From the IMG/VR virus record IMGVR_UViG_2534682157_000019: a DNA stretch of 64,000 nt. One strand, 5' to 3'. Positions 7,283 through 15,666 of this stretch are shown one piece after another. The position numbers and the translations under genes were made by a program. The notes under the pieces were generated by a model. It was not told the origin of the DNA. It searched no databases and worked only from the letters and a program-made list of their open reading frames with translations. This DNA is from a virus (lineage: Duplodnaviria > Heunggongvirae > Uroviricota > Caudoviricetes). Numbering within the stretch: the stretch's first letter is position 1; each line of letters begins with the position of its first letter.

Positions 7283-10200
7283 TTACTCCACTCCCACTTT
7301 TTTGTTGTACTCGCGGTTAAAGCGATCCACGGCAACCTTCATATCCCGCTCTACCGATTTCACCATCGCCGCCTGCTGCGCCAGACTGAGAGAACTGTCG
7401 GCATAAATGGCATCGCGCTGTTTGCGCAAATCCTTCAGTCTCTTCCGGGTATCCTGCATAAGCCCGTTCATCGACAATTTTCCGTTGTTCTCGTCAATGA
7501 ACGCCGTTCTTTCTGCACCGGTCAGACTCTTCAGCTCTGCGTGATACTGCGCAACCTCTGTCATCCGGTCGTACATCTTCTGCTGGTCTGCATACGGCAT
7601 CACCTCACCCGAAATTTTCCCCAGGAAGGGCACCTGCTGTTCCGGTATATCAATACCATTCAGCGATTTCACCGCCGCATCCGTGGTTTTGGAAATGAAG
7701 CGCCCTGTCCCTCCGGAGATATAGTCAATCCAGAATATCAGCGATTCCGGTGTGATATCCACCGCGCCGGGACGGTACTGACTGCCACCAGAGAACGCAT
7801 TCAGCCAAGATGCAAACGCCTTGTACGCTTCTGGCGTTGAACGTATTCCCAGCTGGCTGTCAGGTTTTGGTGTACCAAACGGTATGTTCTCCTGGTAAAT
7901 CTGCGCCCCCATGAAGTTTTCATTCATGGCAAGGTTCGCAAACGGACGCAGAATGGTCGGCGCTGCATTTTTCAGCAATGCCCCGGACAGTGTTTCCGAC
8001 GTCTCACTGCCGATCGGGCTGAATGCCCCCAGGATACCACCGACAACATTACCGGCAGCACGGGATGCCGTCAGGTCACCCGCCGCCACACCTTCAGCGG
8101 TATGCCCGAGCAGGAAGAAAACGTTGTACCCGTAAGGCAGAGGAATACTCCAGTACTCTCCGGCCTTGCCCCCGAACACCGATTTCATAATGACGAGGTT
8201 ACGCTCTTTCACATGAGACGGCACTTTGTCATACCAGTTAACCCCGTCATCATCCTCCCCCGCAACACTGCGGTTAAGCGAGCCAAGCAGATAACCCGCT
8301 CCCACAGCTGCAAGCGCGATTTTCTGCGGTACATTGAGATTCTTCCAGCGAAGGCGCTCCAGTAACGGCCCGTCGCCATTAAGATGTCCGAGCGTTCTCA
8401 CCAGGTTTGCCGTCCCCTGAATGCTGGCGTTGGCAAACATATACAGCGAGTTCATCAGCGCTCCCTGCTCACCACGACGATTAAAGTTCACCGTCATGTT
8501 TTTGGCAAGAGACGCCGCCTGCTGGCGTGACAAACCGGCATCACGGGCGTGTTTATAGGCAGAAAGACGCAGAGCATTTTCAACCGCCCCGTTGGCATCC
8601 TCGACAAGGTTAAGGAACGAATTCCATGCACCGATACTCTGGCCTTTCCATCCTCCCTTCGCCAGCGATACAAGGCGATCCATTTCCTTCTGCTGGCCTT
8701 CAAGGTCACCCATGTTAAACCAGCCGGTTTTACCTCCGTCCTCAACAAACTCTTTCCACACCTTCTGCCACTGCGCACCTTTGCCCGTGAGGTTTTTGCC
8801 ACGCAGACTGGCGTATACGGCTGACATAGCAGAACGGCTGTCTTTCACCACAGCCAGTGCGGATAAGTTATCCAGCCCTTTCAGTTTGCCGTCGCTCCTT
8901 CCCTGCTCCGCCTTCAGATTCATCACCGCTGTCTGCACATCACGGATGAAGTTACTGACCAGGAATTCCGGGTTATACGACGTGTTCACCGTTGCCAGGA
9001 AGCGGTTAACTTTCCCCAGCGTACGGATTACTGCGTTACTGGTTTCCGGTCCCATATTCTTCATCGCACGCATCAGGCGCGGATCATGGAGTTTGATGTA
9101 GTACGTTTTGCCGTTCTTTTTGGTGGTGAAGTACCGGTCTGCCATCATTGCCATCGCCACCGGACGCTCGACAACTTCGCGAATGGTTTCACCAGTTTCC
9201 TGGTCCTTGCGCTCTGCAATCACACGCATGGTATCCGGTCTGTCATCAGTGAATACCTGCCAGTAATCCTTATCGGGATTATCCTGCACCAGCTTCAGGA
9301 AGGCGTTACCCACTTCATTTTTGCGACTGCGGATCAGCGATTCGCTCAAGTCCTGTATCGCCTGAGTGGACGGAGACTGTGCGCGGGATGCACGCCCCAT
9401 GGCCTGCTTACTTTCACGCCCACCGATGGTGAAGCCCTTACCTGTACGGGGCAGTGACACCACACCGTCAACATCCTGCCCTTTCAAGGGAACGTAGTAA
9501 CGGTAGGCGTTCTGCCAGGCATCCACCACACCGCTCTCTTCCAGTCCGGCCTCACGGATAAGCTCACGGCGACGGGCCAGCATATCGTCAACAATCCCTG
9601 CCAGACGGTCATACTGTGCCTGTTTGCCGCTGTTACGTACACGCTGCATGATTTCCGCCGCTTCCGCGTTGGTCATCCCCGAACCGCCGTCCGGCATTTT
9701 CGGGTTGATTTTCGCGATATGCGCGTTACGTTCCGGCGCGTGACGGGCGTAGAGGTACTCATCCAGATCGGCCTGCGCAATTTTGTAGTCCGCCAGTAAT
9801 TTAGCCAGTGGCTGAACGTAGCGCTCCTTCATCACGTTCAGGTCGTTTTCCGCCTTCCCGTGGAAGAGTTCTTCCGCCATATAAGCGTTGTTACTGTCGT
9901 CTATTTTTCCGCCAGTTTTACGGATATTCTCCTGAACAGCTTTCAGCACCTGGAATTTATCCTGCATCTGGCGCACAAAACGCGATGCAATTGTCTCTTC
10001 CGGTGTCAGACTGCTGGTACGGGAGTAATACGGCCCCTTGCGAATATCTTCAGGATAGAGTATTTTATCTACAGAGCCGCGATAAGAACGCTCCTCTTTG
10101 GGCAATTGAAGCCCACTGTACTGAGGGTTATCGCGGCTTAATTTTTCCTTCCGGTAAAGCGTCAAACCTGCTTTATCCAGGCTATTAGCTTTGTTCATCC

Positions 10201-15666: not shown

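Follow-up and report, generated by a model that had tools for sequence, protein, structure and literature searches.

A gene for a predicted polyvalent virion protein of about 2,800 residues is split by a one-base deletion in the sequence of a Stx1c prophage

Short-tailed Shiga toxin (Stx) phages of the 933W/Sp5/phi24B type (Sepvirinae) carry at the end of their late operon a single open reading frame (ORF) for a protein of 2793-2811 residues, designated ORF80 (ECs1242) in Sp5, orf71 in VT2-Sakai, L0134 in 933W and vb_24B_48 in phi24B (gp47 in a recent preprint). In Sp5, deletion of ORF80 (2,793 aa) affects neither excision nor DNA packaging but abolishes both plaque formation and lysogenisation, a defect that can be complemented; the mutant heads are full and normal-looking, and they are not bound by an anti-tail-fibre antibody (Mondal et al. 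2016, PMC5155283). The same authors concluded that the protein takes part in assembling the tail and reported a match to COG1483 (AAA+). In phi24B, gp47 (2811 aa) is present in purified virions by proteomics and invisible in the cryo-electron microscopy map, and its authors propose that it is an encapsidated ejection protein (preprint 10.64898/2026.04.10.717836). Virion presence and essentiality are thus experimental results obtained with orthologues of the gene described here, which occupies positions 7283..15666 on the minus strand of a 64,000-nucleotide stretch of DNA from IMG/VR record IMGVR_UViG_2534682157_000019. This stretch, to which we refer as the window, is a Stx1c prophage of the same phage type, and in it the giant gene is split by the loss of one base.

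Three further groups of described proteins frame the comparison. The polyvalent proteins of phages are giant multi-domain products of genes that lie among those for the virion; they have been proposed to accompany the DNA into the host, and LPD5, LPD1, MuF_C and LPD38 are among the domains that define them (Iyer et al. 2017, PMC5512222). CLCA_X zincins are found mainly in phages and plasmids, often within very long proteins (Lenart et al. 2013, PMC3650047). In Bcep22-like podoviruses, a giant protein (JC1 gp69) carries LPD38 near its C-terminus (residues 4195-4401) behind a string of effector domains (PMC9144972). The window gene shares features with all three, and with the Sp5, VT2-Sakai, 933W and phi24B genes it shares 97-99.9% nucleotide identity over 8.4 kb, its place at the end of the late operon and its set of domains. 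Over its full length the region is 97-99.9% identical at the nucleotide level to sequences in 186 phage and 427 E. coli complete-genome records.

In the window the coding sequence appears as two minus-strand ORFs, the largest that the window holds, one at 7283..12679 (1798 aa) and the other at 12673..15705 (1010 aa, or 997 aa when counted from Met14 at 15666, which is the RefSeq start in relatives and has GGAG 6-9 nt upstream). They overlap by 7 nt, with the downstream ATG overlapping the upstream stop codon (ATGCTGA). A preliminary description made from the letters of the window had taken them for the two largest genes, closing the virion operon; their size and their place at the operon end hold, whereas the count does not, as the two are one frameshifted gene. 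In a three-way alignment of the window with E. coli JNEC-KY171 and VT2-Sakai, the window lacks a single base, with a coding-strand run of seven A (A7) reduced to six (A6). The site is a plus-strand T6 at 12701-12706, which on the coding strand (minus) reads GGGGGGAGAGCAT-AAAAAA-GTAC, where relatives have seven A. Once the base is restored, a single frame of 2807 aa opens from the ATG at 15705 with zero internal stops and runs through ...GESIKKVRHSVSEMLNGTV..., giving the peptide ...GESIKKVRHSVSEMLNG... across the junction; from the Met at 15666 the restored gene would encode ~2794 aa. PHROG family phrog_616 (2793 positions) spans both pieces, the upstream ORF matching positions 1-990 and the downstream ORF positions 997-2793. 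VT2-Sakai, phi24B and JNEC-KY171 each have one annotated coding sequence of 8385-8424 nt across the region, and in these three, as well as in nine IMG/VR contigs, the junction lies in one frame of ~2,794-2,807 aa. Because the protein family spans both ORFs, relatives hold one coding sequence and restoration of the base opens the frame, the 997-aa and 1798-aa ORFs are to be read as one gene for a virion protein of ~2,800 residues that has been split by a frameshift. Its N-terminal fragment (12673..15666, minus strand, 997 aa) ends in eight frameshift-derived residues, YDTVYRKC, and its C-terminal fragment (7283..12679, minus strand, 1798 aa) begins at what is an internal Met of the intact protein. 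The one-base deletion is the only peculiarity specific to the window, the orthologues in Sp5, VT2-Sakai, 933W and phi24B being uninterrupted.

The domain content of the protein lies largely in the 1798-aa ORF, to which the residue numbers below refer; all of its features are on the minus strand. Pfam finds four domains, each far above cut-offs of about 27 bits: LPD5 (12068..12517, residues 55-204; PF18799, E 3.8e-45, 154 bits against a cut-off of 27), LPD1 (11348-11587, residues 365-444; 84 bits), MuF_C (10151..10420, residues 754-843; PF18819, E 6.4e-18, 65.2 bits against 27.6, profile positions 8-96 of 103) and LPD38 (7622-8239, residues 1481-1686; E 1.6e-46, 159 bits). Several unrelated domains of the polyvalent repertoire thus stand in one polypeptide encoded among late, virion genes, and these sequence features support the assignment of the giant protein as a phage-type polyvalent protein. 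Like the proteins described by Iyer et al. (2017, PMC5512222), it joins LPD5, an MPTase (metallopeptidase)/LPD1 unit, MuF_C (PBECR) and LPD38, and its family swaps modules; it departs from them in that its ~1000-residue N-terminal region and a second HExxH module match no Pfam family significantly. Two Salmonella enterica homologues carry a phosphoribosyltransferase-like insert of ~250 residues between LPD1 and that second module, a case of cargo swapping in the same scaffold. The Bcep22-like giants carry lytic transglycosylase, methylase, helicase-like and LPD3 domains in place of LPD5, CLCA_X and MuF_C (PMC9144972).

Between LPD5 and LPD1 lies a zincin-like metallopeptidase module of the CLCA_X/polyvalent MPTase type (11357..12124, residues 186-441), recognised by NCBIfam NF041907 (CLCA_X; E 2.6e-44, 243/250 profile positions), by conservation and by an AlphaFold2 (AF2) model. 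The match scores 151.6 bits, below the curated whole-protein cut-off of 260, and the module is therefore best described as a diverged domain within a giant protein and not as a stand-alone member of the CLCA_X subfamily. Its HEWFH motif occupies residues 288-292 (window 11804-11818). Of 43 homologues (39-66% identity), at least 90% keep H267, H288, E289, H292 and D295, and all have E379; since the motif residues are retained to this extent, HEWFH is not a chance HExxH. The model of residues 179-454 is confident (predicted local distance difference test, pLDDT, 90.2; predicted template modelling score, pTM, 0.90) and shows the zincin core fold, with HExxH in model helix 108-125 and E379 in model helix 199-217. 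H267, H288, E289, H292, D295 and E379 are candidate metal-binding or catalytic residues, and on the model either D295 (nearly invariant) or E379 (invariant) could be the third metal ligand. A phage-type MPTase clade has been described in which strand 2 closes with a His and HExxH is followed three residues later by an Asp (Iyer et al. 2017, PMC5512222), and the motif found here agrees with that pattern. CLCA_X zincins likewise have HExxH followed by a conserved Asp, written HExxHxxxD by Lenart et al. (2013, PMC3650047), in contrast to the HExxHxxD of the present protein. As E379 falls inside the Pfam LPD1 match, LPD1 corresponds to the C-terminal helical part of the peptidase module. Together, the profile match, the conserved residues and the model support residues 186-441 as a zincin-type metallopeptidase module with predicted activity.

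Much of what the preliminary description had proposed is borne out by these data: the HEWFH motif is where it was placed, in the 1798-aa ORF, the zincin-type module has both a profile match and residues conserved in at least 90% of 43 homologues, the structure prediction that had been named as a check for a metallopeptidase fold came out in its favour, the resemblance to polyvalent proteins extends to four Pfam domains, and the orthologue of phi24B has been detected in purified virions (preprint 10.64898/2026.04.10.717836). Its polyvalent and zincin interpretation is right and was already available, both in the literature and in RefSeq, where orthologues bear the product name "LPD5/LPD38 domain-containing protein". 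Less apt was its statement that the remaining ~1400 residues are unassigned, since Pfam domains cover ~430 further residues of the 1798-aa ORF and a conserved module can be recognised in its last 915; it also missed a second HExxH motif, HEIIH at residue 555. The present analysis adds modestly to the existing picture by placing the peptidase, pointing to a candidate second peptidase module, delineating a C-terminal module that is without a solved homologue and correcting the assignment of MuF_C.

The second conserved HExxH module spans 10640..11188 (residues ~498-680), with HEIIH(H) at 11003-11017 (residues 555-560), and was recognised from its phmmer family and its invariant residues. An exhaustive phmmer search with residues 480-700 retrieved 393 representative proteins at E<=1e-3; among the best 150 of these, most are 1500-6000 aa long with the match in their interior, and a few are stand-alone proteins of 210-270 aa. 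All of 26 diverse homologues share H555, E556, H559 and E611. The family consensus, LRHE[VI][LI]xH[HY]GL, is of the HExxxH form, from which the giant protein studied here differs by a one-residue deletion, and an HEXXXH clade of MPTases is mentioned by Iyer et al. (2017, PMC5512222). Links to known peptidases are faint: profile comparison by hhalign gives E 0.02 and a probability of 2% against the first module and E 0.018 against the HELVH region of the virion RNA polymerase (vRNAP) of phage N4 (probabilities 2-3% throughout), both alignments placing the strand and the motif helix in the same register, and Peptidase_M76 appears as a weak Pfam match in 6/26 members, while the module profile has no match in the PDB. 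From its sequence we regard this module as a putative and probable second, minimal gluzincin-like MPTase, and the conserved H-E-x-x-H...E pattern is a modest new detail of the present analysis.

Downstream of it, MuF_C belongs to a different functional class. The domain has been classed as a PBECR domain with a predicted RNase fold, and not as a peptidase (Iyer et al. 2017, PMC5512222); in an alignment of nine homologues read by eye, most share the motifs NGVKH, with a conserved His, and ASVYG, with a conserved Ser. The phi24B preprint names it a MuF-C metallopeptidase and infers peptidoglycan degradation (10.64898/2026.04.10.717836), an assignment that looks mistaken: the actual zincin of the phi24B-type protein is the CLCA_X region between LPD5 and LPD1.

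The last ~915 residues (7283..10030) form a conserved C-terminal module that includes LPD38 and was delineated from homologues, an AF2 model and BFVD matches. Its homologues have 33-58% identity over 95-99% of its length, and the module occurs alone, as proteins of ~900-990 aa, or behind ART-PolyVal, methyltransferase, PBECR1, LPD3 or LPD5+LPD1 heads. The model is confident (pLDDT 83.7, pTM 0.80) and mainly alpha-helical, with a small beta insert at module residues 257-314. Its BFVD matches, with template modelling (TM) scores of 0.6-0.9, are to the final segments of many giant phage proteins, and part of these proteins have the same C-terminal fold fused to a lytic transglycosylase, to RelA/SpoT or to a methylase. 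No solved homologue of the module was found in the PDB, and hhalign detected no similarity to the C-terminal domain of N4 vRNAP. This recurrence behind unrelated heads leads us to infer that the module is a constant carrier with exchangeable cargo.

At the other end of the protein, the N-terminal ~1000 residues have no match in Pfam, NCBIfam or the PDB, and in sequence searches against solved structures neither ORF has a match. The first ~400 residues are Ala/Gly-rich and the stretch from ~400 to ~900 is acidic, Pro/Gln-rich and of low hydrophobicity; in the whole protein no transmembrane segment appears at a Kyte-Doolittle 19-residue mean above 1.4. A weak match of the N-terminal fragment to phrog_2206 (N4-like vRNAP N-terminal region; E 0.0016) was not reproduced by BLASTP against N4.

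These observations invite comparison with gp50 of N4, the vRNAP of 3500 aa, which like the present protein is giant and encoded by the last gene of a virion operon. N4 particles contain gp50 within the capsid and eject it into the host cell. An HExxH MPTase region is present in gp50 as well (Iyer et al. 2017, PMC5512222). The two proteins differ in that gp50 matches four vRNAP Pfam families, of which the window protein matches none, and has no LPD38 match. Homology to N4 vRNAP was rejected, as BLASTP with both ORFs, phmmer with the late proteins and hhalign of the C-terminal and second HExxH modules against gp50 were all non-significant, and in phmmer and BLASTP searches the late proteins of the window show no similarity to those of N4 beyond an N4-gp56 family annotation of the capsid protein. 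The giant protein may work like gp50 and is not a member of its family.

Taken as a whole, we consider it quite probable that the region holds one gene for a polyvalent virion protein of ~2,800 residues, split by a one-base deletion in an A7 run, whose product is packed into the virion and ejected at infection and is built of carrier and cargo modules. In this model, a few copies of the protein would be packed inside the capsid and, when the phage infects, would exit by way of the tail, either before the DNA or together with it. The C-terminal ~915-aa LPD38 module would serve as the common carrier for incorporation and ejection, and the variable middle would be the cargo, consisting of LPD5, the CLCA_X-type zincin (H288-E289-x-x-H292-x-x-D295 plus E379), the second HExxH...E module and the MuF_C/PBECR RNase-fold domain. 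MuF_C and LPD5 could then act as effectors, and the zincin module or modules would most likely cleave the polyprotein itself or host proteins, peptidoglycan digestion being the less likely activity; self-cleavage or cleavage of host proteins has been proposed for the polyvalent class (Iyer et al. 2017, PMC5512222). The parts of this model that we infer are ejection, proteolysis and the way in which the modules share the work.

Several points weigh against this reading. Ejection into the cell, proteolytic activity and self-processing are argued by analogy with other proteins, and the carrier role of the C-terminal module is argued from its recurrence, with neither a solved homologue nor similarity to the C-terminal domain of N4 vRNAP to add to it. 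The second HExxH module is without a statistical link to zincins at the sequence level, and a role as a membrane conduit finds no sequence support, there being no clear transmembrane segments. The missing anti-tail-fibre signal of the Sp5 mutant is poorly explained by a purely internal cargo and suggests an additional role at the portal-tail junction.

A bolder version of the packed-and-ejected model can be entertained, in which the LPD38 module is an uncharacterised apparatus for ejection and translocation, passing the polyprotein along the short tail and across the envelope, after which the two HExxH modules would cut the chain into effectors, among them the PBECR RNase. We put this forward tentatively, as a possible but doubtful extension; if true, Stx phages would deliver a mixture of enzymes into the E. 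coli cell in the way that N4 delivers its polymerase. In a weaker form of this version, the frameshifted allele of the window may still function through -1 slippage or trans-complementation.

Among the alternatives, the view of Mondal et al. (2016) that the protein is a tail-assembly factor or a structural tail component, acting with an energy-requiring AAA+ step and not ejected, is unlikely. It accounts directly for Sp5 ORF80 mutants that package DNA into normal heads and remain unbound by the anti-tail-fibre antibody, and it draws on the COG1483 (AAA+) match given by those authors (PMC5155283). Against this, the phi24B tail was modelled completely without the protein, though proteomics places it in virions, and the domains found here are those of polyvalent cargo proteins. 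Identity as an AAA+ ATPase was rejected, since Pfam and NCBIfam scans of the protein return no AAA+ or other ATPase family and a Walker A motif ([AG]xxxxGK[ST]) is absent from all 2807 aa.

The proposal of the phi24B preprint, that the metallopeptidase domain digests peptidoglycan to let the ejected protein build a conduit across the periplasm, appears improbable as well. Cell-wall hydrolases are indeed present in the ejection proteins of other podoviruses, and in BFVD the C-terminal fold of the present protein is sometimes fused to a lytic transglycosylase; the proposal has to be set against the MuF_C assignment and the lack of clear transmembrane segments discussed above.

There remains the nature of the deletion itself, which stems either from a sequencing error in the homopolymer or from an inactivating mutation private to this prophage. 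The A6 allele was counted by exact pattern scans and by a tblastn search with the peptide tail that the frameshift creates. Of the 295 E. coli complete-genome and 94 phage records that match the 80-nt A6 junction, none has it in exact form, and the exact pattern scan of IMG/VR gave 0 matches for A6 as opposed to 9 for A7. By tblastn the frameshifted tail is read through in only two phage records, phi346 and phi349, in both of which A7 is intact and a G6 run 10 nt upstream of it is shortened to G5. The annotation of these records (PV189404 and PV189405, ~6540-6570) splits the gene into ~950-999 aa and 1797 aa, and the GER2 record (MG710528) has a copy of the giant gene that is likewise broken and is unannotated. 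Because phi346 and phi349 are viable, plaque-forming phages sequenced by nanopore alone (PMC12502783), their insertion or deletion (indel) in the G-run is probably a sequencing error, and an artefactual split only 10 nt away indicates that this homopolymer-rich junction is prone to such errors. Pointing the other way, the A-run deletion is the sole gap in 22.9 kb aligned to JNEC-KY171, the other homopolymer runs of at least 6 nt (31 runs) being unchanged, so that the assembly is not generally error-prone; the lack of any other homopolymer indel in the 22.9 kb favours a real mutation over a sequencing error. The far half of the prophage offers no such measure of sequencing quality, because its identity to the closest genome is just 96-98% and indels there are not readable as errors.

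Were the split real, it might also be tolerated, with the 997-aa and 1798-aa products acting in trans or with -1 slippage on the heptamer A_AAA_AAG yielding some full-length protein. We judge this, too, to be rather improbable, even though the site (12701..12706, minus strand) has suggestive features. The heptamer stands in the zero frame of the upstream ORF, a -1 slip recreates the exact wild-type sequence (...SIKKVRHSVSEMLNG...), and GGGAG is located 5 nt before it. The frameshift site of E. coli dnaX has the same layout. Separate products are conceivable given the downstream ATG that overlaps the upstream stop (ATGCTGA), the C-terminal module occurs as stand-alone proteins in other phages, and the clean 22.9 kb of assembly counts in favour of a real mutation. 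On the other side, the A6 allele is in none of the E. coli, phage and IMG/VR records searched, the Sp5 orthologue is essential (PMC5155283), and in the genomes of viable phages sequenced by nanopore alone a comparable artefactual split lies 10 nt away. The 80 nt downstream of the heptamer fold no better than shuffled sequence (z 0.13), and other lineages have no A-run at the site, so that nothing is conserved there. A conserved programmed frameshift is ruled out on the same grounds, P27-type Traversvirus and Oslovirus relatives reading GTAAAGAGTATCCGC, with no A-run, and downstream RNA structure being absent; any rescue of the frame on A_AAA_AAG would therefore be basal leakage and not a designed signal.

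The genomic setting is that of a prophage of this group. Identity to Stx phage records is 97-99.6%, and the closest genome, at 99.9%, is that of E. coli JNEC-KY171, in which the annotated prophage includes stx1c, portal, terminase and a capsid gene of the "N4-gp56 family" and adjoins ynfF. The giant gene is the distal, last gene of a minus-strand late operon with terminase, portal, tail-fibre and internal-virion-protein genes upstream of it. RefSeq places the major capsid protein of JNEC-KY171 (32269-33483, corresponding to ~31-33 kb of the window) in the N4-gp56 family. Three genes upstream of the giant gene, a 90-aa protein (17012-17284, minus strand) has a C-terminal glycine-zipper segment (GTGIGTGATIGATVGSAVPVVGTAVGAVAGAVIGGIAGALF), a BLASTP match with E 0.001 to residues 403-482 of N4 vRNAP and PHROG matches to internal segments of phage proteins of 768-1244 aa; it may represent a small virion or ejection protein that acts on membranes.

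The Shiga toxin operon lies at 43383-44959 (minus strand), where a 318-aa ORF at 44003-44959 is a stxA-type ribosome-inactivating protein (RIP) gene with a Pfam RIP match of 6e-38, and where stxA1c and stxB1c are annotated in the closest relatives, phiSTEC1589-Stx1c and JNEC-KY171; a gene for a SASA/NanS-like esterase follows the toxin operon at 41034-43052. Within the first 3,000 nucleotides (1-3000), the prophage of the window adjoins ynfF, and in the closest genome nothing is annotated between the two except 84 nt that are left of a 4Fe-4S protein gene; this remnant could derive from ynfG, in which case the phage would have inserted in ynfG. The sole block of the first 23.7 kb that does not align with JNEC-KY171 is 4547-5311, whose counterpart in that genome lies among ead/Ea22-like and DUF551 accessory genes.

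The present results leave the existing understanding of this protein family unchanged. What they provide is a domain map of a gene that is essential in phages spreading Shiga toxin genes and takes up ~13% of their genome: one gene, one zincin, a possible second, an RNase-fold domain and a carrier module, each a precise target for mutagenesis in Sp5 or phi24B. If the A6 run in the window is an error, the two ORFs should be merged. If it is real, the prophage would probably be without infectious particles, unless the two halves act in trans or low-level -1 slippage supplies the full-length protein, and the frameshift would bear on the ability of this Stx1c prophage to transfer its toxin genes.

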